The notes under the pieces are model-generated. The model did not search any database and had not been told where the DNA came from. It saw only the letters and a list, made by a program, of their open reading frames with translations. Shown here in pieces: positions 412 to 29,751 of a DNA stretch of 64,000 nucleotides. Origin of the DNA: a virus; the IMG/VR virus record IMGVR_UViG_3300032267_001204, positions 8,314 through 72,313 of that record; one strand, given 5' to 3'. Within the stretch, counting starts at the first letter, position 1, and each line of letters begins with the position of its first letter. Position numbers and translations under genes: made by a program.

Positions 412-702
412 ATGCCCAATCAACTAAAACCAGGAACACGCCGTCTCTCCTATGTCGAGACGCGCCAAGCAGCCAAAGCTTTGGATATCTTAGCTGCGGC
501 CAAAAGCACCAACGTATCGGCCCTAATTCGTGAGGCCACCGAGGATTACCTAAAAAAAGTAGATAAAGACAACTCCGTCCGAAAGCTCGCCCTGCAAATC
601 GTGAACGAACTTCCCGACGACGCGGAAGAACGAGCGGAAGCGGATTTAGACCCGAAAACCATGGAGCAGCTCACCGCCGTGATGAAACACATTCGGCGTT
701 GA
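412..702 (+). CDS. Putative ribbon-helix-helix transcriptional regulator (repressor candidate)
   Basis: RRLSYVE strand followed by helices ALDILAAAKSTNVSALIREA, a CopG/RHH-like pattern. Lies next to the integrase; AAGGA upstream. Confidence 0.55.
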   Translation: MPNQLKPGTRRLSYVETRQAAKALDILAAAKSTNVSALIREATEDYLKKVDKDNSVRKLALQIVNELPDDAEERAEADLDPKTMEQLTAVMKHIRR

Positions 703-739
703 CCGGCATTATCAGAATGTTAATATCGGCCCCTCTAAG

Positions 740-797
740 TCCTAACCTAAACACCTAAACTAAACTAAACCTAAACCAAAACCTAAATATACCATAA
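740..797 (+). repeat. G-free tract of degenerate CTAAA/CCTAA repeats
   Basis: cctaacctaaacacctaaactaaactaaacctaaaccaaaacctaaatataccataa, directly before the ATG at 801. Confidence 0.7.
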
Positions 798-800
798 GTC

Positions 801-1022
801 ATGGTCGTCATCAACCTCACCCATGCTCAAGAAGAAGCGCTCAAGCGCCTATCAAACCAAGTCAACCTTCCTCCGGGGAAAATCGCCGAGTTATTTGTGC
901 AAGATGGGATTTCGTCGTATGCTTACACCAACGATGGACACTCCTCCTTGCGCGAGTCTCTTGCCGAGTCTTCAGAAGCTTCGCAACCCGAAGCTGATCC
1001 GGAGCTTTGCCAGCGACGCTGA
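801..1022 (+). CDS. Small putative DNA-binding protein (RHH-like)
   Basis: MVVINLTHAQEEALKRLS...IAELFV, a strand-helix-helix pattern. Confidence 0.5.
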   Translation: MVVINLTHAQEEALKRLSNQVNLPPGKIAELFVQDGISSYAYTNDGHSSLRESLAESSEASQPEADPELCQRR

Positions 1023-1125
1023 ACTAGAAGACGCACTCATTAAAGCTGCGGAGAGAACCGGCTACTCGATGTCTGAGATTATCCGGCAAGCTCTCCGCAG
1101 CTCTTTGCTTCAGCAAGGTTCTTAA
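934..1125 (+). CDS. CopG/RHH-like DNA-binding protein (start uncertain)
   Basis: RSFASDAELEDALIKAAERTGYSMSEIIRQAL is a typical RHH sequence. Overlaps the previous ORF in another frame. Confidence 0.55.
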   Translation: MDTPPCASLLPSLQKLRNPKLIRSFASDAELEDALIKAAERTGYSMSEIIRQALRSSLLQQGS

Positions 1126-11726: not shown

Positions 11727-14024
11727 ATGAACCTCGACATTACCCCCGAAGAATTTGGTATCCACCCCTGCCCCGAGTCCGGAGAAGGATGCCACGGCTG
11801 GATCTACGGCGCAGCCCATCGGCTCGTTGCTGCCGGCTTTGAAGACGATGAGATCGAGGCGTGGATCGAGGCGTACCTCAAACGCCCGTCCCAGCCCCGC
11901 GAAATTGCCAACACCCTGTCCAAGGTTCGGGCCGAAGCCGACGGGAAGATCGCGCCGCGCAAGAGCGTCGGAGCCAAACGCCCCAAAGATGAGGCGGCCG
12001 TCGCCAAGCTCTTGGAGGGCGGCCCGATCTCGGTTGAGGACTTCATCGCGTCGAGTCCCAGTCCGGTATCAATTGATACTACCACCGTTCTCAAGGCGCT
12101 ATTCCCGGGAGAGAAGACCATTCTCTTCACCGATCAGATGTCCCAGGGCCAGCGAGTCTGGGACGAAGCCATCCCCCCAGAGGACGTAGATCGTCTGGGA
12201 CGGACAAATACGCAGGGCGCTTGGTTTCTTCTTAATCCAGTCACCGGAGACTACGCCGAACGCGAGGGAGCCAAACCCTCCCGCCGGTCCGAAGCGACCA
12301 TTTCCGCTTACAAACACGTCCTCGTCGAGTCCGACAACGTCAACCTCGGAGAGTGGCTCGCCATCCTGCGCCAGCTCGACCTCCCCATCGTCTGCGTAAC
12401 CCTCTCCGGCAATGCCTCGGCCCACGCTATCGTCCGGGTTTCCGCAGATAACCGAGATGAGTGGGTCGCCGCTGCCAAGAAGATTGCTGATCTCGTCGTT
12501 CCGCTCGGAGCCGACCCCAACGCCATCACCGCAGTCCGGCTCACGCGCCTCCCGGGGGTGGTGCGAAAAGACAACGGAAATACCCAATCGCTGATTTGGT
12601 TCAATCCAGAGGCCGTGCCGACTGAAAAATGCGTTCTTAGTAAGCCAGAAGGATCAGATCCAGACGCGACCAAAGAAGAAGAGGCCAATATTTCTTCCGA
12701 AACCGGTGGACGAAATGACGACTTCTCCGACATTTATTACGACGGCAAAGCCTATTTCATGCGCTCCGCCGACGGGATCTGGCGGTATGAGCTGGCAGGA
12801 ATGCTTCACTCTGCACTCAAGGTGCGCGGCTACGCCGACAGCGCACCCAAGGGGCGAGCGACCCAAATGGACGTAGCCAAAGGCATCATCCGCGAACAGC
12901 GCCGAGTCGATGGCGCAGGCCCTCGCCTCTACAGCCCCCACGAAACATGGGCAGAAGGCGGCAAAAGATTCCTCAACACCGCTTGCACCAAGATCATGCC
13001 GGCCGCGCCGACCGCCGGAGCATGGGGTGAGTTCTTCCCGCGCTACGCCGGAGTCCTCGACAACACCTTTACCTGCCCCTCGTACAAGGACACCTTCTTG
13101 GCTTGGTTCAAACGCTTCTACGAGTCCGCCGAGGTGGGCGAATTGCAGCTAGGGCAGGCCCTCGCCCTGGTAGGCCCCGTCCAGTGCTTCAAATCCTTCA
13201 TCATCGAGCAGATCCTCCGCCCCGCGATGGGCGGCTACGCCGACCTGTCCTCGATCGTCAGCGGCGAAAGCAACGGCTTTAACAGCGAACTCTACCACTC
13301 CCCCTTGGCCGTCATCGACGACTCCAAGGCGGCCGAGTCCGAGGCCCAGCTCAACCGGTATGCCAGCGCCATTAAGAAGTTGGCGGCCCATGGTCGTCAC
13401 AAATACCACGAAAAGTTTGTGACACCGATCCTCGTCGAATGGAAAGGCCGCGTGATCATCGCGGCCAACGACGACGCGGTGTCGATCAAGTCAGTTCCGG
13501 CCCTCGACATTAGCAATGAGGACAAGCTCATCGTCCTAGCCATGCAGACATGGGAAGAAAACCCCGGCCCCGACGCCTTGCGCGACGTTGTCGAGGAACT
13601 CCCCCACCTCCTCGCATGGCTCAAGGAGTGGGACTATCCCAGGGGCCTCGTGGACCCCGGCTCGCGGTACGGGATTCGGAGCGTCGTGGCGCCCGAGATC
13701 CGAGACAAGATGGAGGCATCCGCGAGGACAGCAGAGCTGACCGACACCCTGCGCCTGTGGCGGAAACGAATGCCGGTCGAAGAACGTGACATTGTTTGGC
13801 TCGGGACCTCCGTGGAGCTTCACCAGTCCTTCAATGTGGTCTTCGACAACTCGTCCCTGACTAACCAGTGGCCGGTTCGGGTGCTGGGGGCTCGGATGCA
13901 ACAGCTTTCCAACAAGCCCGACTCCGGCGTCAGCATCGCGCAGCGGCGGTACGGCAAGGAGAAGGTGACCCTGTGGAGGATCGAGCCACCAGGGCCGGAG
14001 ACGCCGGACGAGAATCCGTTCTGA
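11727..14024 (+). CDS. Primase-helicase (RepB/AEP-like primase plus P-loop domain)
   Basis: VLVESD, SGNASAH and RLTRLPG primase motifs. C-terminal LALVGPVQCFKS, AVIDD and IIAAND. Confidence 0.8.
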   Translation: MNLDITPEEFGIHPCPESGEGCHGWIYGAAHRLVAAGFEDDEIEAWIEAYLKRPSQPREIANTLSKVRAEADGKIAPRKSVGAKRPKDEAAVAKLLEGGPISVEDFIASSPSPVSIDTTTVLKALFPGEKTILFTDQMSQGQRVWDEAIPPEDVDRLGRTNTQGAWFLLNPVTGDYAEREGAKPSRRSEATISAYKHVLVESDNVNLGEWLAILRQLDLPIVCVTLSGNASAHAIVRVSADNRDEWVAAAKKIADLVVPLGADPNAITAVRLTRLPGVVRKDNGNTQSLIWFNPEAVPTEKCVLSKPEGSDPDATKEEEANISSETGGRNDDFSDIYYDGKAYFMRSADGIWRYELAGMLHSALKVRGYADSAPKGRATQMDVAKGIIREQRRVDGAGPRLYSPHETWAEGGKRFLNTACTKIMPAAPTAGAWGEFFPRYAGVLDNTFTCPSYKDTFLAWFKRFYESAEVGELQLGQALALVGPVQCFKSFIIEQILRPAMGGYADLSSIVSGESNGFNSELYHSPLAVIDDSKAAESEAQLNRYASAIKKLAAHGRHKYHEKFVTPILVEWKGRVIIAANDDAVSIKSVPALDISNEDKLIVLAMQTWEENPGPDALRDVVEELPHLLAWLKEWDYPRGLVDPGSRYGIRSVVAPEIRDKMEASARTAELTDTLRLWRKRMPVEERDIVWLGTSVELHQSFNVVFDNSSLTNQWPVRVLGARMQQLSNKPDSGVSIAQRRYGKEKVTLWRIEPPGPETPDENPF

Positions 14025-14033
14025 GGCTGGCAG

Positions 14034-14561
14034 CCTGAAGCATGAAGCATGAAGCCTCCTTCGTGAGGCACAATGTCAGGTTAAACGGCCGGATGACTGC
14101 GACTGAGCAATCATTACTGGGGGATTCCTAGGTGTTCCCCCAGCGAAAAAAGACTCCATCCCCCACGTTAAGTTGCTTCGCGCCAGCGATTTAGGTCGAT
14201 CTGGGGGACGAGGGGGAGGGATTCGGGGAATGCGGGTGGCGGAACGACGGGAGGGGGGCTACAGCCGTATATATAATATTTTTTGTTATAGAGAAACACT
14301 GTAGGAATCCCCCTTTCCCCCAGATTTGTAGTATGTCTCTGTCGGACAGCGATTTAAGCCCTGTTTTTGACTGGGGGAAAGCCTGGGGGAAAGGGGGAAA
14401 GCCCCCCTAAAAGTGGGGTTAAACGCGAGTTTAGGGGGAAAGGCCTGCCGAAAACGCGGTTTTCGGGGGTTTCTGAGTTTAGCCCACATTCTGAGGGTCA
14501 GTATGTCGGGAATCCCGACAATCAACCTGAAGCATGAGGCGTAAAGCCTCTTTCGTGAGGC
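14034..14561. repeat. Origin-like region bracketed by 36-bp direct repeats (14034-14069 and 14526-14561)
   Basis: The repeats match at 32 of 36 positions. Between them are many GGGGGA/TCCCCC runs around an AT-rich core near 14268-14290. Confidence 0.6.
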
Positions 14562-14662
14562 GCTATACCCGATAAGGTCGCCGTCAGGCGACATCCCAGA
14601 GAAGACGGCGAACGACGACACCGGGAAAGCTTAGTGCAAACCGTAGGACTTTGTTCGCAAGT

Positions 14663-14688
14663 GCATACACTTCGCAACAAGTGTATGC
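14663..14688. other. Perfect 10-bp inverted repeat after the minus-strand ORF
   Basis: GCATACACTT-cgcaac-AAGTGTATGC. Confidence 0.5.
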
Positions 14689-14692
14689 GTTC

Positions 14693-14911
14693 CTATCCAA
14701 GGTGGAGTCCTCGGTCATCGAGGATTTCAATAACTCGCGCCCGGACGCGCTCGAAAGTCCGATACTCCTCGGCGGTGTGTTCGCCGTGCTTGATCTGGGA
14801 CCTGAGGTATTGCAAGAGGTCGTCCATCGCCCATCTCCAATCCGAACCCTGGCGGGCGTCGGTCAGCGCGGCGTCGTCCTCTGGGAGGTGGAACTCAAGG
14901 GTAGCTTTCAT
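14693..14911 (-). CDS. Small phage protein (MKATLEF.LPED type)
   Basis: Helical 72-aa ORF downstream of the tRNA on the same strand. Confidence 0.65.
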   Translation of the reverse strand: MKATLEFHLPEDDAALTDARQGSDWRWAMDDLLQYLRSQIKHGEHTAEEYRTFERVRARVIEILDDRGLHLG

Positions 14912-14988
14912 AAAGTGGGGCGGGGTCCGGGATTTCCCCAGTAAACGAGCGTCACAGTTTAGAAAGCTGCCGCACGACCCCCACCATT

Positions 14989-15057
14989 TTGCAGGACCGG
15001 GAATCGAACCCGGAGAGCCGGCTTATGAGACCAGCTTAGGATCCAACCTTTCCTGCG
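14989..15057 (-). tRNA. tRNA-Met(CAT), initiator-like, with a shortened D-arm
   Basis: Acceptor CGCAGGA/TCCTGCA-A; anticodon arm CTGGT-CTCATAA-GCCGG; T-arm CCGGG-TTCGATT-CCCGG. Confidence 0.8.
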
Positions 15058-15600
15058 GGGTTAATATCCTTGCGTTTGCAAGTGTGTCAAACGGCTCCCC
15101 TGATTGTTGCGGTTATCAGCCGGTTAATAAATGCAAAATCCCGGGAAAAATTAATTTCCCATCAAATGATATGTAACTGCTGCGAAATTGGTGGTCAGAG
15201 GGGACCGTGGTGGATCGGGTGGTGGGTCACAGATTCAGGATCCGTGCGCTTTCTACCGATCATCTCTGTATTGTGCCGCATTGTGACGAGAACCATGAAG
15301 CATGGATATTGCTGCAAGCCTCTGTGCATCAATGACTTACGCAAAAAGGGGCAAATCAGCCTCTAACAGAGTAGCATCGGGCCAAAAAGCCCACCTCTAC
15401 ACAACATATAGGGGAAAATCCGGCCCTTTTGATTGATTCGCCCTGCTTTTCAGGGGGTTTCCCTCCTTTGGCCTCATAACCTGCCTACCGATTAACAGAG
15501 TAAAACGCCGTGTCCCGTCCATTTATTCATGGATGAAAGCTCCATCGGAGCCGGAATCCACTCAAGTAGAAACAAAGAGCCATGCTCCAAGCATCGCTCA

Positions 15601-15618
15601 ACTCAACATCCGTTGAGT
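15601..15618. promoter_or_regulatory. 18-bp palindrome, copy 1
   Basis: ACTCAAC-ATCC-GTTGAGT. Confidence 0.85.
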
Positions 15619-15637
15619 CGTTAGCTCGTTAGACAAC

Positions 15638-16042
15638 ATGAAAACACACAAACTCGTTACCTCGTTCTGCAACGGAATCCTCCAAGGCGAAACGCTCCGC
15701 GAAACGCTCATCCAGCTTGCCGCTGAAATGGTCGAGACGATCGGCAAGCGTGACGCTGCGAAGCAAGTCCGCGCAGAGTTGAAAACCCCTCGCTTCATCA
15801 ATGCCCTCGTCGGCGAAGGGAAGCGTTACAAGAACGAGCGGTCGTGGGAAGTCCGCGTCTCGTTCATCCTCTGCAACTACGGCCTGAAGGCCAAGTCGTC
15901 GGAGGGAAGCGGCAAGAAAGTTGCGCCGCGTCTCCGCTCCGAAGGTTCCAAGATCGCTGCCAAGCTGCTCGCTAACTTCGAGAAAGCTGAAGCGGTGAGC
16001 ATCCTCCGCGTTGCCTTGGAAGAAGCCAAGGCCGCTGAATAA
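15638..16042 (+). CDS. Hypothetical basic helical protein
   Basis: 134-aa ORF flanked on both sides by the palindrome. Confidence 0.7.
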   Translation: MKTHKLVTSFCNGILQGETLRETLIQLAAEMVETIGKRDAAKQVRAELKTPRFINALVGEGKRYKNERSWEVRVSFILCNYGLKAKSSEGSGKKVAPRLRSEGSKIAAKLLANFEKAEAVSILRVALEEAKAAE

Positions 16043-16059
16043 CTCAACATCTGTTGAGT
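16042..16059. promoter_or_regulatory. 18-bp palindrome, copy 2
   Basis: ACTCAAC-ATCT-GTTGAGT. Confidence 0.85.
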
Positions 16060-16067
16060 GAGAACAA

Positions 16068-16093
16068 CAGCGCAGGGCTTCGGCCCTGCGTTG
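16068..16093 (+). terminator. UUCG-capped hairpin
   Basis: CAGCGCAGGGC-TTCG-GCCCTGCGTTG followed by tatctt. Confidence 0.55.
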
Positions 16094-16131
16094 TATCTTG
16101 CTCAAAGCGGCAAGCGTGGCGCGATTCACGC

Positions 16132-16159
16132 ACCATGAACCATGAACCATGAACCATGA
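16132..16159 (+). repeat. Tandem heptamer (ACCATGA)x4
   Basis: accatgaaccatgaaccatgaaccatga; the last unit holds the ATG at 16156. Confidence 0.9.
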
Positions 16160-16362
16160 CCCTAAAACCACTACCCCGATTAACTGATGCCGAGCTGAAG
16201 CGAGAAGCCGACGCGATTGTGCGTTACAACGAACACCGCAATCCCTTCTTTGGTAAAGTTTCGTTCGGCGAGTTTTGTCGTATCCCATACATGACTCCCG
16301 CCGAGATTGCGGACGCCTCGCCGGAGTTGCAACACGCCGCCACGTTCTGGAGCGATCTATGA
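16156..16362 (+). CDS. Hypothetical protein
   Basis: Short ORF coupled to the next gene by ATGA. Confidence 0.55.
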   Translation: MTLKPLPRLTDAELKREADAIVRYNEHRNPFFGKVSFGEFCRIPYMTPAEIADASPELQHAATFWSDL

Positions 16363-16586
16363 ACGCTAACACCCGAGCCAAGAAACTTGAGCGGCTATTT
16401 ATCGCTGCCGCTTTCGAACCACGCACAAACAAGGAGTTCGATCACAAACCAGAGGCGTTGCGAACCGAGTTCTGGCAGCTTCATCGTCGTCTGCCGCACT
16501 CCGCCCCCGCGCTTTGGGAGCGGTTCAAGAAGCGCATGGAGCGCACGGGCCGTTTGTCCGAAGGCACATCGTGGAGATACGAGTAA
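16359..16586 (+). CDS. Hypothetical protein
   Basis: ATGA overlap with GGAG upstream. Confidence 0.55.
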   Translation: MNANTRAKKLERLFIAAAFEPRTNKEFDHKPEALRTEFWQLHRRLPHSAPALWERFKKRMERTGRLSEGTSWRYE

Positions 16587-16647
16587 TCACATCGGCGCAT
16601 CCTTCGGGGTGCGTCGAGGTGTCGAATCAGAGTGTTCTGATTCGCCG

Positions 16648-16665
16648 ACTCAACATTCGTTGAGT
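16648..16665. promoter_or_regulatory. 18-bp palindrome, copy 3
   Basis: ACTCAAC-ATTC-GTTGAGT. Confidence 0.85.
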
Positions 16666-16728
16666 GAACCCTCTGGCATGAGGGGCAACAAACTCCCCGA
16701 AAGGCGAGCATCATGCCACACCACGAAC

Positions 16729-16920
16729 ATGGAAACAGGAATACTGCCCAAGAAAAAGCTGCCCCGCTTCCGCGAGGCGGCGAAAGACGAGGGACGTCCC
16801 CTCGCCTTCGAGCCAACCCCCAAGGAACTCGAAGACGAAAGGTCGCGCTATCTGGCGGCCAACAACCGCAACTTCGGGACGAATCTGGCTTTCGTCATTG
16901 ACTTCGTCCCGAAATCATAA
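16729..16920 (+). CDS. Hypothetical protein
   Basis: METGILPKKK...; follows the hairpin cluster. Confidence 0.45.
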   Translation: METGILPKKKLPRFREAAKDEGRPLAFEPTPKELEDERSRYLAANNRNFGTNLAFVIDFVPKS

Positions 16921-16930
16921 CCTCATCACC

Positions 16931-17143
16931 ATGAGCCATGAAACAAGGTTCCTTAACCCTGATCCACAGCCCCAGGCCGATCCGGCCGAGTGGCGTCCGA
17001 GTGCCGAACGCGAGTGGCGTCGCGAAGTCGGCGGCATCGAAGCCGAGTGCAAATGCCCTGATTGCGAACCCCGCAAGGCAAAGGGCGAATTCGGTTTCTA
17101 CCATCCTGCAACAAATGAACGCGGAGGTCGATATGCGGAGTAA
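16931..17143 (+). CDS. Hypothetical protein with CxCxxC
   Basis: MSHETRF...ECKCPDCE. Confidence 0.45.
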   Translation: MSHETRFLNPDPQPQADPAEWRPSAEREWRREVGGIEAECKCPDCEPRKAKGEFGFYHPATNERGGRYAE

Positions 17144-17251
17144 CCACTACAAAACCAAGTGTCTGGAGAAGCTGGTCTTATTGTCCCTGCTCCTCCTCTG
17201 GATGCTGTTCGCTCTGCTGTAATAACCACAACACCAAAAAAGTAGATAAGT

Positions 17252-17596
17252 ATGGCTAACTACAAAACCGAGTTCCCTGATTACGACGACACCCTTCCAG
17301 AGTTGGGAGGATTCACCGACTCGTCGTGGCGCAACGATGCCTGTCCGAGCCTCTCGAAAGAGATCAGCGACGACCTGCATCCCAAGACGATCACGATCTT
17401 TGTCGATTACAAAGACCGCGCATTGTCGGAATGCCCCGAGGTTTTCTTCAACGATCATGGCGACTACTACCGCTTTGTCATCGTCGAGTTCACCCCTTGG
17501 GCCGGAGAGAACGGGCAACGCGTGTTGCTGGCAACTAACGATTGGACAGAGGTCTCTGACTTCGCCGCCGATCTCAACTCAACGAATGTTGAGTAA
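17252..17596 (+). CDS. Hypothetical acidic protein
   Basis: FTDSSWRNDACPS motif; its 3' end runs through palindrome copy 4. Confidence 0.7.
   Translation: MANYKTEFPDYDDTLPELGGFTDSSWRNDACPSLSKEISDDLHPKTITIFVDYKDRALSECPEVFFNDHGDYYRFVIVEFTPWAGENGQRVLLATNDWTEVSDFAADLNSTNVE
17577..17594. promoter_or_regulatory. 18-bp palindrome, copy 4
   Basis: ACTCAAC-GAAT-GTTGAGT. Confidence 0.85.
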
Positions 17597-17615
17597 CCAT
17601 AAATCCTATCACGCG

Positions 17616-17981
17616 ATGAAAACATATCCCAAACAACGACACATCTTCCCGAAACATCCTCACAAGAATCCGGAAGGTCCGATAACGGCATGGGTCTACA
17701 ACGGCCTTCACGATCCGGAGGAGCCCTATGCCAACTACATCATCGAGGAGATCAGGTGGATCGAGCATCTTGACGAGCCAGCCTTCATGCTCGTTCTGGA
17801 GAACTCCTCGTTCATCAAGCCTCGCCTCGAAGACCTTGAGCCGCTGCTGTTCAAGTGGCTCGAAGACGAAGGTGTGCGCCTCGTGCATCTCAACGCCCAA
17901 GACGCGAGCGAAACCCCCCGACAAATGGCGTTCGCACCGCGCAAATGCCCAACCTGCTGCCAACCCATCCCTGAGGAGTGA
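17616..17981 (+). CDS. Hypothetical protein with C-terminal CxxC
   Basis: MKTYPKQ...KCPTCCQP. Confidence 0.6.
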   Translation: MKTYPKQRHIFPKHPHKNPEGPITAWVYNGLHDPEEPYANYIIEEIRWIEHLDEPAFMLVLENSSFIKPRLEDLEPLLFKWLEDEGVRLVHLNAQDASETPRQMAFAPRKCPTCCQPIPEE

Positions 17982-18070
17982 AACTCCGCACTCCCTGCCC
18001 CCACAGGGAGTGTCAGTCTCACTCAACAGATGTTGAGTAGGGAAATAACCAAACAACCAACATGGAGGTA
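17973..18070 (+). repeat. About 100-bp intergenic element containing palindrome copy 5 (18021-18038)
   Basis: Hairpin, then TCAGTCTCACTCAACAGATGTTGAGTAGGGAAATAACC, then the RBS. Repeated at 18624-18725. Confidence 0.9.
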
Positions 18071-18072
18071 AC

Positions 18073-18612
18073 ATGAAAAGAAAAACCCTAACAATAGTCC
18101 CATCCGCCGTTGATCAGGCGATCAAGCCGAAGCCAAGCCGCGCCGAGATCATCGAGGCCGCCGTTCAGTTGCGGCTGGAGGAACTCCAGAAGGAAGCCGA
18201 GGTCGTCGCGAATCACAACCAACGTCTCAGTGACGCTGTCGTTGCGTTGATCCCCGCTGCTGTCGATGGCGTTTGCAAAAACGGAACGCTTGCGAAATCA
18301 CTAAAGGACAACGAGACGATCTACTACTACCGCAATTGGGCTGACGAAGATCATCTCTCCGTTACAATTAAGATCGAAAAAAGCGACCTGACGTTGAAGT
18401 TGCAAGCCGCACTCGCCAACGAGCGCGACAACCGCAAAAACCCTCCGTATCTCAGCGTGGATCAAATCCGCCGAGAGGTGAAGCAAGGGCTGAAACCCTC
18501 GGCTGATCCGGCTGGCCGGGTCAAAGCGTTGCTTGCCGATAGCGACAGCCGCACCGCTTTGCAGAGCCTTCTCAAAGCGGTCTATCCGAAACCCGAAGCG
18601 GTTGAAGTATGA
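18073..18612 (+). CDS. Hypothetical protein
   Basis: GGAGG RBS; flanked by the two 100-bp elements. Confidence 0.75.
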   Translation: MKRKTLTIVPSAVDQAIKPKPSRAEIIEAAVQLRLEELQKEAEVVANHNQRLSDAVVALIPAAVDGVCKNGTLAKSLKDNETIYYYRNWADEDHLSVTIKIEKSDLTLKLQAALANERDNRKNPPYLSVDQIRREVKQGLKPSADPAGRVKALLADSDSRTALQSLLKAVYPKPEAVEV

Positions 18613-18623
18613 GTGGTAAGCGA

Positions 18624-18725
18624 GAGGAGTGAGACTCCGCGCCCCTTCCAACTCTGGGAGGGGCGTCAGTCTCACTCAACAGATGTTGAGTAGGGAAATA
18701 ACCGAAACACCTAACATGGAGATAT
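18624..18725 (+). repeat. About 100-bp intergenic element containing palindrome copy 6 (18674-18691)
   Basis: Direct repeat of 17973-18070 with a different inner stem sequence. Confidence 0.9.
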
Positions 18726-18731
18726 AACACC

Positions 18732-19340
18732 ATGCCTATTGCAAAAGTAAATCTGTCGGCCCTCGGCACCAAGCCGAAGGGAAACACGAAATCGTATCCT
18801 GTGCTTCCGCTCAGCGATGAGCTGAAGGGATTCGTCAGTGATTACCTGAAGAACACGCAGGATATCGAGACGCTGGAAGGTGCGAACAAGCAGCTCCGCG
18901 CTTACCTCGAAGTCGAGGCGCGTCGCTACTACTACCAGCACCACAGCGGCAAGCTCGACGTCGAGTCTTCGCTCGAAGCTCCTTCGAGCAACGGCCAATC
19001 GTTGCTGCTCACCTGCCAGAACCGCTACAAGGCGTTGCCCGACGAGGCACCCATCGTAGCGGCCATCGGCGAGGAGCGCACCGAGCGGCTCTTCTACAAC
19101 TCGGTCGATGTGAAGATCGACGGCGACAAGATTCCGGCGGACAAGATCAATGATCTGTTTGCGGAAGTGGCGGCGGTCTTTGCCAAGTTTGGCGCGACTG
19201 ATGCCTTGTCGCACCGCTCTGTCATCAAGCCCACGCCGGAGTTCCACACCGCCCGGCACACGATCCTCTCGGTCGAGGAGAACCTCGCCGTCGATCAGGC
19301 CACGCCGTTCACGTTGGCATTCAAAACCAAGCGCCGCTGA
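18732..19340 (+). CDS. Hypothetical protein
   Basis: 202 aa with strong codon bias; TGATG coupling to the ligase. Confidence 0.75.
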   Translation: MPIAKVNLSALGTKPKGNTKSYPVLPLSDELKGFVSDYLKNTQDIETLEGANKQLRAYLEVEARRYYYQHHSGKLDVESSLEAPSSNGQSLLLTCQNRYKALPDEAPIVAAIGEERTERLFYNSVDVKIDGDKIPADKINDLFAEVAAVFAKFGATDALSHRSVIKPTPEFHTARHTILSVEENLAVDQATPFTLAFKTKRR

Positions 19341-19957
19341 TGAACCCGCCAACCTTTCCTGCGCGGCCGATGAACGGCGGCCCGTTGGATCGGGCTAAGG
19401 AGAAGCCTGAACCCGAAGCATGGTTCTATGAACCCAAGATCAACGGCTGGCGTGTTCTCATCGACGTGAAGAACAAGAAGATGTGGACGCGTTACAACCG
19501 ACCATCATCGGTCGAGCATAAGTATGCGGCGGTTCTGGAACGAATCGCAGCGCAGTTCTCCGGCGACGAGGTAACGTGGCTCGACGGCGAGATCCTCGGG
19601 CAACGGGCCAGCTCTATCGGGCGCGGCTCGCTCGTCATCTTCGACGTGGCTTGGCCGCGTTGGAAGGATTGGTCTATACTCCACGACCGGCGACGACTGC
19701 TCGACGTTATGTTCGATAACGTCAACGAAGTCTGGGACATCGACAGGCTGCCGAGTCAGGACACGATCTACCGGTTGCCCCGAATCTCCGGCGCCGACGC
19801 GCTGGAATACTACGAGCGGATGCAAATCGCCAACCAACGCTTCGGCCTTGAGTTATACGAAGGCGTTGTGGCGAAGAACATGCACAAAGAATACCCGACA
19901 CAGCTTCGATCCGCTACGGAGGAGACTCCTTGGTGGGTCAAACATCGTTGGGACTAA
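19340..19957 (+). CDS. Minimal ATP-dependent ligase-like nucleotidyltransferase
   Basis: Motif I EPKINGWR, III LDGEI, IIIa IFDV, IV EGVVAK and V WVKHR. Confidence 0.8.
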   Translation: MNPPTFPARPMNGGPLDRAKEKPEPEAWFYEPKINGWRVLIDVKNKKMWTRYNRPSSVEHKYAAVLERIAAQFSGDEVTWLDGEILGQRASSIGRGSLVIFDVAWPRWKDWSILHDRRRLLDVMFDNVNEVWDIDRLPSQDTIYRLPRISGADALEYYERMQIANQRFGLELYEGVVAKNMHKEYPTQLRSATEETPWWVKHRWD

Positions 19958-19976
19958 CCACAAAGGAGGTGAACAA

Positions 19977-20438
19977 ATGAGAAAGATGTCTATCGAATGT
20001 GCGATGGAAATCTGGAAGGCCGGCGGCGGCGTTGCCGCCAGCGAATGGCAGGAGAAGTCCGGCTATTCACGCGGCGGCCCGATCTACAAGCGGCGAGCGA
20101 CTCCCGTTTTCTGTCGGGAGTTGACTCGGGAGGGCCTCGAACTCGAAGCGATCAACCCGCACGAGGACATTGCTTCCTACTATCGGAGCATTCTTGCCTA
20201 CGTCACTGGTCGTTATCCGAAAGCGCGCAAGGTCATCGTGGTCAACGACCCGGTCGGGCTGCGGACCGCGTGTATGGATGCGGAAATCCCAGAGCCAAGG
20301 TTTGACGCCTTGATGGGCCAATGGGATCTCGGCAACACAGTAGCGAGCCAGCGCGTATGGCAGGCCCAGGCCAAGCCGCGCTATGCGTGGCAAGGCCTTG
20401 TGAAAAGGCTTGATCCGGCTCCGGCTCTGGGTTCATAA
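19977..20438 (+). CDS. Hypothetical protein
   Basis: AAAGGAGGT RBS. Confidence 0.65.
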   Translation: MRKMSIECAMEIWKAGGGVAASEWQEKSGYSRGGPIYKRRATPVFCRELTREGLELEAINPHEDIASYYRSILAYVTGRYPKARKVIVVNDPVGLRTACMDAEIPEPRFDALMGQWDLGNTVASQRVWQAQAKPRYAWQGLVKRLDPAPALGS

Positions 20439-20492
20439 CCTGCCAACCGGAATCAGAACCTTCTGATTCTGGGAGGAACACCATCCCTTCTC

Positions 20493-20510
20493 ACTCAACA
20501 AATGTTGAGT
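20493..20510. promoter_or_regulatory. 18-bp palindrome, copy 7
   Basis: ACTCAAC-AAAT-GTTGAGT. Confidence 0.85.
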
Positions 20511-20585
20511 CTGGGAGGGGATGGCATCCTCCCCGCAACATCAGTTGCGACGGAGATCATAACCTAACTACCAAAGGAGGTATAC

Positions 20586-22271
20586 ATGCCCATCAAATAC
20601 TACACCCCCACGCTCGACAAAGCGGTGAAGGATCACCACATCGACTACCGAGTGCGGGGCCGACTGCCAGAAACTTACGACCTGCAATGGGTCGATAAGC
20701 GTCATCCGTGCAAGACCGGCTGCTGGCGTTTCGACCACGCGTCGGGTCGCCACGAGATCCGTTTGTCCCAGATCTGCTACGACACCCTGACCAAGGGCGG
20801 AGCAGCACACGGCAAGCGGGTCGCCGTGCCTGACCTGTATCGCAACGTCTACGAACACGAGGCAGCGCACTCGCTCTACACGACCAAAGACCTCGAAGGT
20901 CTCGGCAAGATTCTTGCCGCCGAGAAAATCCCTTGGCGGCTGATGAACTTGTTCGAGGACTGCCGCATCGAGCGTAATTGGATCCTCCGCGAACGCGCTG
21001 GCAAGTCGTTTCGCTGGACTCGTTGGGAGGAGCATCCGCCCGCCTCCAAGATGAGCGCGAGCAGCTTGCTCTTCCACATGAAGACCGAAGGCTTGACCCG
21101 CAGCGGGTATCGCTTCCCTCGGTCGTTCATCATTGCCCATCGGGCACACCCCAACTGGCGGAAAGTCTACGACTATTACCGCAGCATCGTCGGATGTGGA
21201 GGGACCGAAGACCTCGTGCCGATCCTCAAGGACTGGCTCAAGGACTTCCCCGCTACGGGTGACGACACCATCGAGGGTGAAGGCGGCGATGGAACCGGCG
21301 ACATGGGCGAGGCGATCGGCGAGGCCACGGGGACGCGCCCCGAGGACGTCAAAGCGAAAGACCCCAAAGGCGAAGGCGCATCGCCGGAGACCAAGTCTGG
21401 AGACGGCGAGAGCGAGGGCAAGGGCAAAGGCGGCAAGGCCGGCACTCGTGCCGAGTCCACCACGTCACCGACCCACGGACGCGGCAGCGGCGGCTCCGCT
21501 TCCGAAGTCGTGCCGACCATCGACCACGAGGCTGAGCGTTCGCTCCGGCTGGCGCAACTGCTGGCCCAAGCGTTCCGCAAGAACGGCATCATCGCCAAAG
21601 GGCCAACGGCCCGTCCGTCCAAGCGGCTCAACCTGCGCGGCTTGCTGCGCGGCGACTGGTCTCGTCCGTTCGTCGGCAAGACGATCGGCAACACGAACAA
21701 GCCGCACATCTCGTTCGTCATGGATTGCTCGGGCAGCATGAGTTGCCTGACTCACCTTGATCGTTCGCGCAAGGTTGAGCTTCGCACCGATGACTGTGGT
21801 CGAATCCTTGCTCGTGCGTTGAACGAGCTGGCTCGCCTTGGTCACATCACCGGCATCGTCTACGGCTCATCGGATGGCGGCTGCCATTCGCGCACCGAGC
21901 TGCCCGTCCCAAACCATGTGCTGACGATGGACGCTGGCCTCGAAGCCTTCTCCGGCTCCGAGGGTATCGGCCTCACGTTGGCGCCCGGCTGCAAGCCCGG
22001 CTGCTACCCGAAGAAAGGCTCCGGCTCGTTCTTCGAGGAGATCGCCGCCAAGTCCAAGATTGCCATCGTCTACACGGACGGCTGCATCACGGACGCTCCG
22101 GTCAATCGTATGCCGCTCCGTGCGCGGGGCGTCTACACCATCGGCGCCTACGCCGGACCGGACAAGACCGCCGCACTACGCCACCACTTCGATTACGTCA
22201 TCAGCCGTGACTCGTTGTGGGGCGTAGCCGATGCGCTCGTCCGCACCCTGAAGTCCATCCCGCGCAAGTAA
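20586..22271 (+). CDS. HExxH metallopeptidase-like plus VWA domain protein (CobT-like architecture)
   Basis: HEAAH and NLFEDCRIE; G/E/K-rich linker; MIDAS DCSGS and YTDG. AAAGGAGG RBS. Confidence 0.85.
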   Translation: MPIKYYTPTLDKAVKDHHIDYRVRGRLPETYDLQWVDKRHPCKTGCWRFDHASGRHEIRLSQICYDTLTKGGAAHGKRVAVPDLYRNVYEHEAAHSLYTTKDLEGLGKILAAEKIPWRLMNLFEDCRIERNWILRERAGKSFRWTRWEEHPPASKMSASSLLFHMKTEGLTRSGYRFPRSFIIAHRAHPNWRKVYDYYRSIVGCGGTEDLVPILKDWLKDFPATGDDTIEGEGGDGTGDMGEAIGEATGTRPEDVKAKDPKGEGASPETKSGDGESEGKGKGGKAGTRAESTTSPTHGRGSGGSASEVVPTIDHEAERSLRLAQLLAQAFRKNGIIAKGPTARPSKRLNLRGLLRGDWSRPFVGKTIGNTNKPHISFVMDCSGSMSCLTHLDRSRKVELRTDDCGRILARALNELARLGHITGIVYGSSDGGCHSRTELPVPNHVLTMDAGLEAFSGSEGIGLTLAPGCKPGCYPKKGSGSFFEEIAAKSKIAIVYTDGCITDAPVNRMPLRARGVYTIGAYAGPDKTAALRHHFDYVISRDSLWGVADALVRTLKSIPRK

Positions 22272-22328
22272 CCCTGCCTCGGGAGACACACCTCCCCTTC
22301 CCGCTCTGGGAGGGGGAGTTAGTCTCTC

Positions 22329-22346
22329 ACTCAACCAATGTTGAGT
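22329..22346. promoter_or_regulatory. 18-bp palindrome, copy 8
   Basis: ACTCAAC-CAAT-GTTGAGT. Confidence 0.85.
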
Positions 22347-22422
22347 TCGGGAGTTAAACACAACCCCCTCTGGTATGCGGGGAACCGAATCATTCTGATT
22401 CCGTTGCATACCAAACATTAGC

Positions 22423-23790
22423 ATGTCCGATAAACATACATCCAAATACACGCACGAGCTGATCGACTCTATGTCGTGGAAGATGCTGCGCGCTGCGGCG
22501 AAGGAGGAACTCGAAGCCCAAGGATTCAAAGGCTCGTGGTCGTCCGACTGCCAGACGCCTCGCCTCAAGGCGATGCTCAAGGGAGAGATGACTGTCGCCG
22601 AAGCGGAGGCCGCTGTCCTCGCTGACAAGGCGAAGAAAGCTGGCATCTCGCTCGGCGGCGGCATCGACGCCACTGCGCTCAAGCCGCTCGAAGCCAAGCT
22701 CACCGAGCTGGCGGGTATCATCTCGTCGCTCGACGACGAGGTGACTACGGCCAAGTCCGAAGCGGCCAAGCTCGTCGGCGACTTGCACACGGAAATGTCC
22801 GATCGACTCACCGAGTCGCACGAGGCCTTCACCAAGCTGCAAGATGCCGTCACCTCGGCCCTTGCCAGCGGCGGTTCGGCTGCGGCCAAGGTCATCGCTC
22901 CGATCCTCGGGGTGCCGACGCCTTCCTCGTCTGACCCCGCGGTCATGGCGCTGGAGCTGTTCTGCGCTCCAGGCCGTGCGATCAAGCCGCTGCTCGTCAA
23001 GGGCGGCCAAGGTGCGGGCAAGACCTACGCTGGGCGTCAGCACGGCATGACCGCCGGCTTTGACCGCTGCATCGAGTTCGGCGTCCACTCCCAGACTGAG
23101 GCCGTGGACTTCCTTGGCATGATGATGCCGAGCGGCGAGTGGCTCGACGGCCCCCTGACCGAGGCGTTTCGCGCTGCGGCTCTGGGACAGCTCGTCTTGC
23201 TCATCATCGACGAGATCTATCGCGGCCAGAACGGCGCTCGCACGCCGCTCCTCACGGCCACGTCTCCCGCCCGTCTGCCGAGCGGCGAGAAGGTCTACCG
23301 ACTCCGCACGGGTCGCGCCATCATCGATCCGGTGACTGGCGTCCACACCTCCGAGATCATCGAGGCTCCTTGCCAGAACCTCGCCATCGTTGCCACGACC
23401 AACGTCGGGGCCGAGTTCAACGTCGATCCGGGCTGCCCCGCCGAGCGCGAGCGGTTCATCCCTATTCACGTCGAGGTTGACGAGGTCAAGATCCGCGCTG
23501 TCTGCGGCGCCATCGCCACGGCCAAGGGCTTCAGCCCCTCCGTGGTTGACCGCACACTCGCCTTCTACCGCGAGTGCAACGTCCTCAAGACGGACGGGTT
23601 CATCGAACTCTGCCCGTCCACCCGCATCCTCTCCGAGGCGATCGAATACGCCGACAGCGAGGCCAACGTGAAGTCGATGCTGCGCTCGCTCGGCCTGCAC
23701 ATCTGGGTCGGCACCACCATCGAAGGCAAGCCCGAGGAAGAGCAAGTCAAGCGCGTCACCACCGCACTCGACAAGGCCTTCGGGAAATAA
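22423..23790 (+). CDS. MoxR/CobS-like AAA+ ATPase with N-terminal coiled coil
   Basis: Walker A GGQGAGKT, WLDGPLT, Walker B LIIDEI, ATTN and ERF. Confidence 0.85.
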   Translation: MSDKHTSKYTHELIDSMSWKMLRAAAKEELEAQGFKGSWSSDCQTPRLKAMLKGEMTVAEAEAAVLADKAKKAGISLGGGIDATALKPLEAKLTELAGIISSLDDEVTTAKSEAAKLVGDLHTEMSDRLTESHEAFTKLQDAVTSALASGGSAAAKVIAPILGVPTPSSSDPAVMALELFCAPGRAIKPLLVKGGQGAGKTYAGRQHGMTAGFDRCIEFGVHSQTEAVDFLGMMMPSGEWLDGPLTEAFRAAALGQLVLLIIDEIYRGQNGARTPLLTATSPARLPSGEKVYRLRTGRAIIDPVTGVHTSEIIEAPCQNLAIVATTNVGAEFNVDPGCPAERERFIPIHVEVDEVKIRAVCGAIATAKGFSPSVVDRTLAFYRECNVLKTDGFIELCPSTRILSEAIEYADSEANVKSMLRSLGLHIWVGTTIEGKPEEEQVKRVTTALDKAFGK

Positions 23791-25208: not shown

Positions 25209-25519
25209 GCATCATGGACATCATGGAAGACATCAAACAGAACGTCGATTCGCTGCTCATAGACCGGCAGACGCGAAGGGTTCTGGTGATGCACGACCTA
25301 TCACGCAAAGAGCCGAGCTACGAGCGCGGCTGTTCTGGCAAGGCGAATCTCGGACGTAGCTACGTCCGGCAAGCAGATCGAATCAGTCGCAAACGCCGTA
25401 AACACTACGGCGTCTACCGCTGTCCGCATTGCGGCGGCACTCACCTGACAACCAAACTGGAGAATCGGGGGCAATACGCGCCGCTTCTCTACATCACAAC
25501 AACGAAAGGAACCAAATGA
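25205..25519 (+). CDS. Zn-finger-like protein
   Basis: CSGK...YRCPHCGGTHLT. Confidence 0.6.
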   Translation: MSIMDIMEDIKQNVDSLLIDRQTRRVLVMHDLSRKEPSYERGCSGKANLGRSYVRQADRISRKRRKHYGVYRCPHCGGTHLTTKLENRGQYAPLLYITTTKGTK

Positions 25520-25737
25520 AAAAACACCTCATTCACCTAAAAGATCACGGCAACACCAAGTTTGCCGTCGCAGAAATCGAAGCTGACATACGTCCGGGCA
25601 ACGACCTTGAACTATTCGAGGCGGTGCAAGACGCCGGAGGCGCGTATGTCACCGAGTTCCAAGGCTACACCTACACCTTGGACGCGCCCGCTTGGGTTCC
25701 CGCCGAGGAATTCGAGCACAATTGGCTCGGCGACTAA
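25516..25737 (+). CDS. Hypothetical protein
   Basis: AAGGA RBS; ATGA overlap. Confidence 0.55.
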   Translation: MKKHLIHLKDHGNTKFAVAEIEADIRPGNDLELFEAVQDAGGAYVTEFQGYTYTLDAPAWVPAEEFEHNWLGD

Positions 25738-25764: not shown

Positions 25765-26067
25765 ATGATTGAAATTAACCGAACTACAACTCACACAACA
25801 ATGAATACAAACATACCAGATGGAGACTACGTCCTCGAAGAAGGCGGCGCATGGCTTGAAGTCAAAGGCTTCGCCATCCGCATACATGCTACCGACGAAG
25901 GAGTAGCCGTAGACATCTACCCCAACAAGGCCGAGCACCACGACGCAATCGCATCGTGCTATGCCTTCGACAACGATGACGCACTTGAGGACGCATACCG
26001 CGAAGCACTAAGCGCCCTTGGCTGGCTGCTTTGCGAGGCGGATCAAGAGGACAACGCCGGGTATTGA
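25765..26067 (+). CDS. Hypothetical acidic protein
   Basis: TDEGVAVDIY motif. Confidence 0.6.
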   Translation: MIEINRTTTHTTMNTNIPDGDYVLEEGGAWLEVKGFAIRIHATDEGVAVDIYPNKAEHHDAIASCYAFDNDDALEDAYREALSALGWLLCEADQEDNAGY

Positions 26068-29085: not shown

Positions 29086-29751
29086 TTATCCTTCTTGGGA
29101 CGCTGGCGTTTCTGGCTGCTGTTGCGAGCTATCAGAAGTATTGAGCCAGCACCAAGAAGGAAAGCGGTAACCCTCGCTGGCCTTCTCGGCCACGTCTTGG
29201 GGCAGCCACACCTTTGCCTTGAGGTTGCAACCGCAGACGCCGCAGTTGGCAAGGCTGGCGTTTCGGACTGTCTCTCGCGCTCCGATGATCGAGTAGACAA
29301 CTGAGGCCAGATTGGAGCACGCGTAGCATCCGGTCATTCCTACGTTCAAGGGGCACGCGGCGCAAGTGGCTGCCCGCCGGTCAGCCGTCTCCTGATCGAC
29401 GAGACCCTTTCCTCCCAGAGCGGAAGCCGTCGCTTTCAGGAAGCGCATGACATCATCAAAGTTGAAATCCTTCTTCAGGCCAGTGTCGGAGTTTCGAATT
29501 TCGGCTGCTTCAAGTACTTCGGCGTCGGTCATTATCGGCGCACAAAGCCCTGGACCGGTCGCCGCGCAGGTGAAGTTGACGACGTCTTGCCGGGGTCGGC
29601 CCTCTGGGAGGCCGTTCGATTCCCGGTGCTCCCTCACTTGTCGGGCGACGTCATCGAGGATCGGCCCTCTGAACTTGCAGTCGGTTTCCGGCTGGAGGTA
29701 GCGCCAGTCGGCGGCAAGCGATTTGTCGAGCCATTCGTAGTCTCTGGTCAT
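29086..29751 (-). CDS. Cys-rich putative metal-binding protein
   Basis: CAACPLN, CYAC, CGVCGC and WCW. Coupled by ATGA to the giant gene. Confidence 0.7.
   Translation of the reverse strand: MTRDYEWLDKSLAADWRYLQPETDCKFRGPILDDVARQVREHRESNGLPEGRPRQDVVNFTCAATGPGLCAPIMTDAEVLEAAEIRNSDTGLKKDFNFDDVMRFLKATASALGGKGLVDQETADRRAATCAACPLNVGMTGCYACSNLASVVYSIIGARETVRNASLANCGVCGCNLKAKVWLPQDVAEKASEGYRFPSWCWLNTSDSSQQQPETPASQEG

Follow-up and report, generated by a model that had tools for sequence, protein, structure and literature searches.

Intergenic palindromes in a phage accessory-gene array and a co-varying small protein as their candidate regulator

Palindromes at the gene boundaries of an accessory-gene array

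We analyzed a 64,000-nucleotide (nt) stretch of viral DNA (the window), which comprises bases 8314 to 72313 of record IMGVR_UViG_3300032267_001204. The phage genome of this record, designated G0, is 72,313 base pairs (bp) long, and its ends repeat over 123 bp. Within the window an 18-bp palindrome with the sequence ACTCAAC-N4-GTTGAGT, designated palA, recurs along an array of accessory genes, and in close relatives of G0 a different palindrome, palB (AATCAGA-N4-TCTGATT), occupies the equivalent region. The palindrome type changes together with a small basic protein encoded at the head of the array, which is our candidate for the protein that recognizes the palindromes. Unless a different genome is named, positions are those of the window, and the gene map consists of our own open reading frame (ORF) calls rather than an annotation.

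An exact search returned eight copies of palA in the window, at the eight positions given in a preliminary description of this DNA, versus none in 100 shuffles. Tolerating up to two mismatches added no copy (0.16 expected), in agreement with the earlier statement that the window holds no others. A scan of all 72,313 bp of G0 found the same eight, with none in the remaining 8.3 kilobases (kb) and no match to a reversed-pattern control. All eight copies lie within 6.7 kb of the 72.3-kb genome. Outside the palindromes, palA half-sites occur four times versus about seven expected from base composition, a lack of enrichment which indicates that the unit is the complete dyad.

As had been described, palA sits at gene boundaries. 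Six copies are intergenic, copy 2 overlaps a stop codon by 1 nt, and copy 4 lies within the last 20 nt of an ORF; intergenic sequence makes up 15% of 15601-22346, and the copies end 19 to 96 nt ahead of the next start codon. Copy 1 (15601-15618; core ATCC, inverted) stops 19 nt short of the start codon of ORF 15638-16042, designated gene a, which lies on the plus strand and encodes the candidate cognate binder, a protein of 134 amino acids (aa) with an isoelectric point (pI) of 9.8. Gene a is bounded at its other end by copy 2 (16042-16059; core ATCT, inverted), whose first base is the last base of the gene a TAA stop codon. Copy 3 (core ATTC, inverted) is at 16648-16665. Copy 4 (17577-17594; core GAAT) falls in the end of ORF 17252-17596 and is 21 nt before ORF 17616-17981. 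Copy 5 (18021-18038; core AGAT) follows a GC hairpin and is 34 nt before ORF 18073-18612, copy 6 (18674-18691) has the same AGAT core, copy 7 (20493-20510; core AAAT) forms the tip of a longer GC hairpin (about 20481-20524), and copy 8 (core CAAT) is at 22329-22346.

The accessory-gene array (16156-23790, plus strand) comprises 11 ORFs on our map: 16156-16362, 16713-16901, 16938-17222, 17252-17596, 17616-17981, 18073-18612, 18732-19340, 19340-19957, 19977-20438, 20586-22271, and 22423-23790. Searches of Pfam and PHROGs assigned none of the array genes to a family, apart from a weak match of 19340-19957 to an ATP-ligase domain.

The preliminary description was also correct about the cores. Read in one sense, the cores of all eight copies fit NRAT, with copies 1 to 3 inverted and copies 4 to 8 forward, and the chance of finding AT at one end of eight of eight random cores is about 4.6e-8. 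Two further claims also hold: the core of copy 3 is the reverse complement of that of copy 4, and copy 2, taken together with its flank, matches copies 5 and 6 exactly in inverted orientation over 22 bp (TCTC and the 18-mer). TCTC also precedes copies 7 and 8 on the 5' side; beyond it, the flanks differ among copies. Because this flank is common to several copies, the asymmetry of palA extends past the palindrome. Thus, the polarity is real. The 22-bp inverted identity shows that copying took place in both orientations and involved units of at least 22 bp, larger than the dyad itself, so that part of the polarity may be historical.

Exchange of the palindrome and of the first array gene among related phages

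Three relatives are collinear with G0 at 65-96% nucleotide identity: the complete genomes G1 (72,115 bp) and G2 (72,742 bp) and a fragment, G3. In G1 and G2, palB is confined to the region equivalent to the palA array. With the positions of the eight palA copies of G0 numbered as slots 1 to 8, palB is present at all eight slots in both G1 (one mismatch at slot 1) and G2, and palA is found at slot 8 in G1 and at slots 7 and 8 in G2. Copy 8 is the sole palA copy common to the three genomes. Conversely, G0, with palA at eight of eight slots, has intact palB at slot 3 (16624-16643; GAATCAGA-GTGT-TCTGATTC) and slot 7 (20450-20469; GAATCAGA-ACCT-TCTGATTC), both copies being common to G0 and G1/G2. 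At slot 8 it has a damaged palB (22387-22401; GAATCA-TTC-TGATTC) with a 15-bp deletion relative to the intact palB of G1 and G2.

The manner in which the two palindromes replace each other differs among slots. At slot 5, palB takes the place of palA in G1/G2. At slot 6 it does so within flanks that are nearly identical between G0 and G1/G2, the palindrome segment alone having been exchanged. At slot 3, about 22 nt with palA stand next to palB as a clean insertion relative to G1/G2. At slot 7, too, the surroundings are conserved apart from the palindrome: palA occupies the loop of a GC hairpin in G0 but is missing from G1, whose hairpin has compensatory changes in the outer stem. The GC hairpins thus vary yet keep their pairing whereas the palA arms are fixed, which indicates that the hairpins evolve as structures and the palindromes as whole-unit sequences.

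Similarity between G0, G1, and G2 breaks within about 50 nt of slots at G0 genome coordinates 23872, 24363, 24898, 26360, and 26936. In contigs from four DNA runs, no joint was found inside a palindrome core, although rare events would be invisible in contigs; the joints were at gene starts or ends.

The plus-strand ORFs of G0 were compared with both palB-type genomes. Those absent or strongly diverged in both G1 and G2 are gene a, genes e and f (17337-17981), ORF 18732-19340 (48% identity), ORF 25765-26067, part of ORF 25429-25737, and a short ORF, 14367-14537, in a probably noncoding stretch. Genes e and f have clear homologues in another phage locus, L018, where they form a pair with no palindrome between them; because they are kept in L018 together with another palindrome, they are not the determinant of palindrome type. 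At the position of gene a, G1 and G2 have a 126-aa ORF without BLAST similarity to gene a. This ORF is flanked by palB, and its stop codon is inside the downstream palB.

Among the three candidate binders named in the preliminary description, the comparison favors gene a. Two RHH-like ORFs at 412-1125 (plus strand) were another candidate, their Pfam matches being below the cutoff for 412-702 and at 23.2 bits versus 20.5 for 823-1125. The 412-702 protein is 97-98% identical in G1/G2, and the predicted DNA-reading strand segments of both RHH proteins are identical. With such conservation across palindrome types they cannot account for the change of site, and we judged them unlikely binders. The integrase-like ORF, about 15 kb upstream of the array, has a subthreshold Pfam match (21.4 bits versus a cutoff of 27.1) and is 83-86% identical in palB-type phages.

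The association between palindrome and protein extends to six lineages, each of which has its own palindrome just 5' and just 3' of a 126- to 139-aa ORF at the position of gene a. Across these lineages the arms are 5-7 bp and the spacers 3-5 bp. In addition to G0 (ACTCAAC-N4; gene a) and G1, G2, and G3 (AATCAGA-N4; 126 aa), loci L193 and L194 have AGTCAGA-N3-TCTGACT at their positions 5956 and 6418 (with the stop codon inside the latter) and a third copy at 6994, with a 139-aa protein, P0005. L026 has GTTTAAG-AAAAC-CTTAAAC at 6173 and 6630, two more copies downstream, and a 129-aa protein that matches a further family member, P0007, by tblastn (E 6e-14). L018 and L020 encode a 133-aa protein and have GTCCG-N5-CGGAC at 14829 and 15274 (stop codon inside), with five more copies, each ahead of an ORF. 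L024 has CTGTTA-N5-TAACAG at 15880 and 16335, one more copy at 16959, and a 130-aa protein. In four of the six lineages, the family gene ends in a stop codon that overlaps the palindrome 3' of it. The most similar proteins go with the most similar half-sites: the G1 protein and P0005 share 40% identity across 83 aa, and AATCAGA and AGTCAGA agree at six of seven positions. The flip in polarity seen in G0 is not consistent across lineages, for all four copies in L026 have the same sense and those in L018 are mixed.

L024 and L026 are close enough to be compared directly. The flanks of the replaced segment are 88% and 91% identical, and the replaced block consists of the upstream palindrome plus the family gene. 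The palindrome 3' of the gene was exchanged in place within a conserved GC stem, and the next slot has the same CTGTTA dyad in both loci, which differ in further nonhomologous blocks elsewhere. On the evidence of the alignment, this is a second gene-plus-palindrome swap, independent of that between G0 and G1/G2.

By sequence comparison, homology of the small proteins is solid for the members from G1/G2/G3, P0005, P0006, P0007, and L026. A search with the 126-aa protein among 1.84 billion cluster representatives found five relatives at E values up to 0.001, and gene a has two close homologues that could be found. Protein queries with gene a recovered no locus in viral contigs or metagenome contigs, and queries with P0006 and P0007 recovered no viral loci. 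The traits certainly common to all six proteins are position, size (126-139 aa), and pI (9.7-10.2). The two proteins that were modeled are all-helical. For the G1 protein, a homodimer model built on our own alignment scored 0.70, 0.71, and 0.70 in three runs, versus 0.00 for the best of three controls; as a benchmark, 20 of 30 solved homodimers attain this mark, as does 1 of 23 monomers. At least 98% of contacts recur among the runs, and the partner pLDDT (predicted local distance difference test score) is at least 79. A homodimer of the G1 protein is supported as a prediction. The modeled interface consists of the N-terminal and C-terminal helices, whereas a basic middle segment makes few contacts, is largely exposed, and may be the nucleic-acid surface. 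A 2,108-aa protein, P0004, was considered as a family member and was not used, as it is a repetitive YadA-head/DUF7408 protein; it matches the 126-aa family in 10 separate stretches, which could be domain repetition or a compositional effect.

Several other repeats were observed in or near these arrays. Just 3' of palA copy 2, a tandem heptamer, GAACCAT, has about four units at 16131-16174, and similar repeats are 3' of the corresponding palindrome in G2 and L018 (about 15300) despite the different palindromes. ATAACC is present 3' of several G0 palindromes. A second, nonpalindromic repeat of L018/L020 (TAATAACTCCACA) is found in the replication region and in the array (L018 positions 1763, 9986, 15680, 15792, and 16335), and related motifs (GTAATAACC) are in L022-L028. 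The TAATAACTCCACA, GTAATAACC, and ATAACC repeats may be a conserved promoter or leader element. A more distant relative, L029 (primase 28% identical), has in the same genomic region (12500-17800) at least 15 copies of a nonpalindromic motif of about 23 nt (core CCCGGCATGTA), spaced 250-500 bp apart and ahead of small ORFs, which looks like a phage-specific promoter array. G1 has a palA-like dyad with one mismatch outside its main array (genome positions 12005-12022, locus L031), in a G1-specific block that corresponds to the region of the G0-specific ORF 25765-26067. The pattern ACTCAACNRATGTTGAGT was found in 28 stretches of viral contigs, those outside G1/G2 all being single matches in other contigs, and in metagenome contigs all were single among the matches listed.

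Candidate operators and competing explanations

The palindromes are probably lineage-specific operators of an autoregulated dimeric regulator of the accessory array, acting most plausibly by repression or as a roadblock, although our confidence in this reading is modest. The product of gene a, a small basic protein that is encoded first in the array and is probably dimeric, would bind palA as duplex DNA, with one monomer on each invariant 7-bp arm. The arm centers are 11 bp apart, about one helical turn, and the spacing in the other lineages is 10-12 bp. Gene a would probably regulate itself, because one site ends 19 nt before its start codon and another overlaps its stop codon. The other six sites are ahead of the genes that follow them, usually between a GC hairpin and the ribosome-binding site, an arrangement that would make the array one regulon. 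Repression or a roadblock to read-through, for which KorA operators (PMC2665229) and stoperators (PMC6550527) offer parallels, is more plausible than activation because copies 1 and 4 are separated from start codons by 19 and 21 nt, too little for a classical upstream activator. Palindrome arms that never vary, next to hairpins that do, fit recognition of sequence over structure.

The protein varies in step with the sites, and close relatives have swapped the two. A change of protein followed by replacement of sites would explain orphan or decaying sites of the other type, such as the palB at slot 8 of G0. A multi-operator regulon was one of the two explanations offered in the preliminary description, and as a regulon read by a phage protein it is the best-supported idea. 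What the analysis establishes is the sites with their positions, their exchange slot by slot, the synteny and co-variation with the protein, and the prediction of a homodimer for one family member; that the protein binds DNA, which protein it is, and in which direction it regulates are inferred. The more specific proposal that the sites silence a host-takeover region in the lysogen found no support, the array genes having no assigned functions.

A number of observations weigh against an operator function with gene a as the regulator. Palindromes flank many array genes, and flanking on both sides is not unique to gene a. Each genome has some sites of another type (two or three palB in G0 and three CTGTTA in L026), which a model with one protein leaves unexplained. 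A symmetric dimer does not explain the oriented NRAT core or the TCTC flank, nor does the mechanism explain the inversion of copies 1 to 3. No sigma-70-like promoter is at any site, and several palindromes are at the tips of longer hairpins, which would suit a hairpin or cruciform signal too. Gene a has only weak similarity to the family (hhalign probability 23%, P 8.9e-4, over 104 collinear columns), and the same is true of the L024 protein (E 0.0012 over 36 columns) and the L018 protein (E 0.13; BLASTP versus gene a E 0.052, at equivalent positions); local hidden Markov model matches to gene a and L018 are circular because both were included in the model. The AlphaFold2 model of gene a is of low confidence (pLDDT 58), and the dimer model was made for the G1 protein. 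No DNA-binding domain was found: gene a matches nothing in Pfam or PHROGs, six other family members have no significant Pfam match, and an Atlas search gave hypothetical viral clusters only. In fold comparisons, the best E value in Foldseek against the PDB was 0.44, and the highest VIA Z, 7.9, does not exceed the background seen with helical models.

It is possible, although unlikely, that the palindromes function instead at the RNA level, as a 7-bp stem with a 4-nt loop in a polycistronic transcript that is read by the same protein or by a nuclease for processing, stability, read-through, or translation. When the eight intergenic RNAs of the array were folded, five had z scores of -4.1 to -7.9 versus shuffles, and the rest, including those of slots 1 and 4, were weaker. 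The palA hairpin is present in most of the predicted folds, and several copies cap longer stems, as at slot 7 and in L024 and L026. Stable GC hairpins precede copies 5 to 8 on the 5' side, none with a T tract. Two palA copies end 19-21 nt before start codons, and with a family gene stop codon inside the downstream palindrome in four of six lineages, a terminating ribosome would meet the hairpin. An RNA-level function would also suit the outcome of the promoter and terminator searches of 14-24 kb, in which four sigma-70-like promoters were found versus 2.5 expected, none at a palindrome (the promoter type of the host itself may differ), and no T-tract terminator stood out. An Rfam E-value scan of 13.5-24 kb gave three subthreshold matches only, unrelated to the palindromes. 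However, invariant stems with variable loops are the reverse of most RNA hairpin signals, and the neighboring hairpins show the conservation of structure alone. Sequence-specific reading of an A-form stem is uncommon. Furthermore, three of the eight loops would read AUYN rather than NRAU in the transcript, yet NRAT is kept at the DNA level in both senses, which is meaningful only on duplex DNA or through DNA-level copying. At copies 5 and 6, an upstream GAGTGA(A/G)AC has the potential to pair with GTCTCACTC, a segment that contains the left palA arm (seen at 18606-18700), and this pairing is a fold that competes with the palA hairpin.

The second explanation in the preliminary description, that the palindromes are recombination sites, is likewise unlikely. 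In this account they would be recombination or insertion sites, or mobile palindromic units, that exchange cassettes, with the core setting the polarity and the small protein or the integrase-like ORF belonging to the machinery. Inverted arms around a short asymmetric core resemble the core sites of recombinases. The clean insertion at slot 3, the position of palA in the hairpin loop at slot 7, and the inverted copying of copy 2 relative to copies 5 and 6, which includes 4 nt beyond the palindrome, all favor this account. Several breakpoints between G0, G1, and G2 are near slots, the family gene moves together with its flanking palindromes in L024/L026, and an integrase-like ORF does exist. 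On the other hand, the cores differ, and identity or complementarity of cores is limited to copies 2, 5, and 6 and copies 3 and 4; such differences would restrict the strand exchange that a tyrosine recombinase could carry out. Although some sites are inverted, every gene is on the plus strand. The breakpoints in contigs are at gene starts and ends rather than in cores, and joints of phage mosaics fall at gene boundaries anyway. Recombination would not convert palB to palA within conserved flanks, as seen at slot 6. The family protein has no recombinase or nuclease signature, and the distant integrase-like ORF is conserved across palindrome types. Cassette replacements do end near the sites, whereas contigs, in which rare events would not be visible, have no joint inside a core.

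A further view is that the protein and its palindrome constitute a self-propagating cassette, in which the small protein, a DNA-handling factor of a novel type, would insert or copy its 18- to 22-bp dyad into intergenic hairpin loops in either orientation, capturing an adjacent gene array and displacing the resident palindrome. We consider this quite unlikely. If it were true, regulator and operators would spread together, combining a regulon with a miniature mobile element.

Very unlikely, in our estimation, is that the sites are operators of another phage or host protein and that the gene a family simply evolves fast and happens to stand first in the array. The searches turned up no DNA-binding fold in the family, ORFs 18732-19340 and 25765-26067 of G0 also differ from both G1 and G2, and each genome has two palindrome types, all of which would be consistent with a different reader. 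However, in six lineages the palindrome proper to each is directly on both sides of the family gene, and the block replaced at the array head between L024 and L026 is exactly the gene plus its upstream palindrome, despite other nonhomologous blocks elsewhere. A host factor would not explain why sites differ among phages from similar lake samples.

The genomic setting bears on the remaining alternative. The plus-strand block of G0 starts with the integrase-like ORF, the two RHH-like ORFs, a PDDEXK-like ORF, and a methyltransferase, followed on the same strand by a helicase, PolA, a C5 methylase, and a DUF5906 primase-like protein. The palindromes are downstream of all these, in the distal half of the plus-strand block, so that the label "early gene array" in the preliminary description does not fit. 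The minus-strand block has the virion genes, including a 3,907-aa ORF at 29748-41471, whose sole match is PHROG 22602, "virion structural protein," over residues 3295-3722. This ORF has no sequence match in the PDB at E values up to 1, including the entries for the N4 virion RNA polymerase, and no Pfam match; its central 1,501 residues have no tblastn match in phage records. It is about 94% identical in G2 and only partly alignable in G1. No match to PF00940 (T7-like RNA polymerase) was found, but control genomes were silent as well. The idea that the palindromes are hairpin promoters of a phage-borne RNA polymerase, with this virion protein as the enzyme, draws on the genome of about 72 kb, the giant virion-protein gene, and the opposed gene blocks, but it is highly unlikely, given that these searches matched the giant ORF to no solved structure, Pfam family, or phage record, that it is about 94% identical between G0 and G2 though their palindromes differ, that recognition is strand-specific in N4 whereas three of the eight palA copies are inverted with all genes on the plus strand, and that the sites are mid-genome, after the replication genes.

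Between the primase gene and palA copy 1 is a probably noncoding stretch of about 1.5 kb (14025-15600), which has no codon-periodic substitutions relative to G2 and has a highly conserved core at about 14740-15490. A search for minus-strand coding upstream of the inverted palA copies likewise found no codon periodicity in substitutions over 14.0-15.6 kb. The stretch has GAAGCAT heptamer repeats at 14036 and 14528 and G-rich inverted repeats (CTGGGGGAAAG) at 14300-14400, and it could be a replication origin or the source of a noncoding RNA. The equivalent region of L024/L026 has GGGGGGTTTAGC iterons. ARAGORN predicted a tRNA-Met at 14989-15057 on the minus strand, opposite to the neighboring genes; the Rfam E-value scan reports no tRNA there.

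G0 is remote from described phages. Megablast of the array against 50,697 phage records gave no match, PolA has distant matches only (below 60% identity), and PHROGs searches of the structural genes gave only weak tail, scaffold, and structural matches. Parts of the array were found in lake or freshwater DNA runs. A search of a species-genome collection with the primase found only L196, a 53-kb contig of a Verrucomicrobia metagenome-assembled genome (50% identity over 519 aa). L196 is possibly a clue to the host or possibly a binned phage contig, and it has neither the family gene nor a palindrome array.

If gene a does bind the dyads, it represents an as yet unannotated phage regulator family, with operator specificities that genome comparison reveals directly. 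The six lineages with six sites, and two swaps between close relatives, would then be a natural set of orthogonal protein-operator pairs, in which a whole multisite regulon is re-specified while the regulated genes stay put. Such a system would offer a handle on the control of hypervariable accessory genes in uncultured freshwater phages. Repressor and site are known to coevolve in the stoperator systems of mycobacteriophages and in the Kor regulons of plasmids, and the present case would add an unrelated phage group that uses a different protein.

Comparison with known multisite systems

In logic and geometry, the closest analogue of the proposed regulon is the KorA-type global repressor of IncP plasmids. 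KorA is a 101-residue dimer with a pI of 10.4; each monomer contacts one half-site of a symmetric operator, which is present at seven promoters, its own among them (PMC2665229). Like KorA, the gene a family consists of small basic proteins, and a dimer is predicted for the G1 member, although not for the G0 protein. Dyads are found before the candidate regulator's own gene and before at least six other units, with no sigma-70-like promoter at any of them. KorA has a recognizable helix-turn-helix, whereas Pfam and fold searches gave no helix-turn-helix or fold match above background for the gene a family. KorA also acts on a plasmid with mapped promoters, whereas the present array is in a phage and its operator specificity appears to have been swapped between close relatives.

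In evolutionary behavior, the repressor/stoperator system of Cluster A mycobacteriophages is the closest analogue. In phages such as L5 and Bxb1, one repressor acts at many sites in short intergenic spaces (PMC6550527), and site consensus and repressor diverge together, each repressor preferring its cognate sites (PMC6550527, PMC9283540). The palindromes described here similarly co-vary with a protein, with six palindromes in six lineages and two independent swaps. However, stoperators are asymmetric, are distributed genome-wide, and mostly point the same way with respect to transcription; their repressor is a two-domain protein that acts as a monomer. In contrast, the eight palA copies are dyads within 6.7 kb of a 72.3-kb genome, three inverted and five forward with all genes on the plus strand, and the candidate protein is a predicted dimer without a PHROG or Pfam match or a fold match above background. 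The term "stoperator-like," used in the preliminary description, therefore holds by analogy but not for the symmetry, the distribution, or the orientation of the sites.

In genomic setting, the array is closest to the PeSL cassettes of T4-type phages. These are repeated composite elements in intergenic positions 5' of orphan genes in hyperplastic regions, which contain stem-loops and expression signals and mark cassette insertion, deletion, and replacement between close relatives (PMC2839356). As they are portrayed in that source, PeSL elements have neither a dedicated cognate protein nor a lineage-specific sequence switch (PMC2839356), whereas the palA/palB system has candidates for both. The conserved unit here is an 18- to 22-bp dyad, with no sigma-70-like promoter at the sites (four in 14-24 kb versus 2.5 expected), and in comparison with the stem-loop terminators of PeSL, the GC hairpins that precede palA copies 5-8 have no T tract.

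Other systems are more distant. The early promoters of N4 are three short inverted repeats that extrude as hairpins and are read strand-specifically by an injected virion polymerase (PMC4496689). G0 resembles N4 in genome size (about 72 kb), in its short inverted repeats, and in encoding a giant virion protein, but its sites number eight, are of mixed orientation, and vary with a 134-aa protein, not with the giant one. The attC sites of integrons are longer and imperfect, are recognized by structure, and are next to an IntI gene. With these and with recombinase core sites, palA has in common inverted arms, a short asymmetric core, and a place at the cassette boundaries of a one-directional array (as in the remark on integrons in PMC2839356). 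Unlike those of attC, however, the arms of palA are perfect and invariant in sequence, the cores differ, and no recombinase gene adjoins the array. The palindrome system belongs to none of the systems compared and is best regarded as a probable multi-operator regulon with an unannotated candidate regulator family, in which swaps of specificity across the whole regulon can be seen between near-identical genomes.

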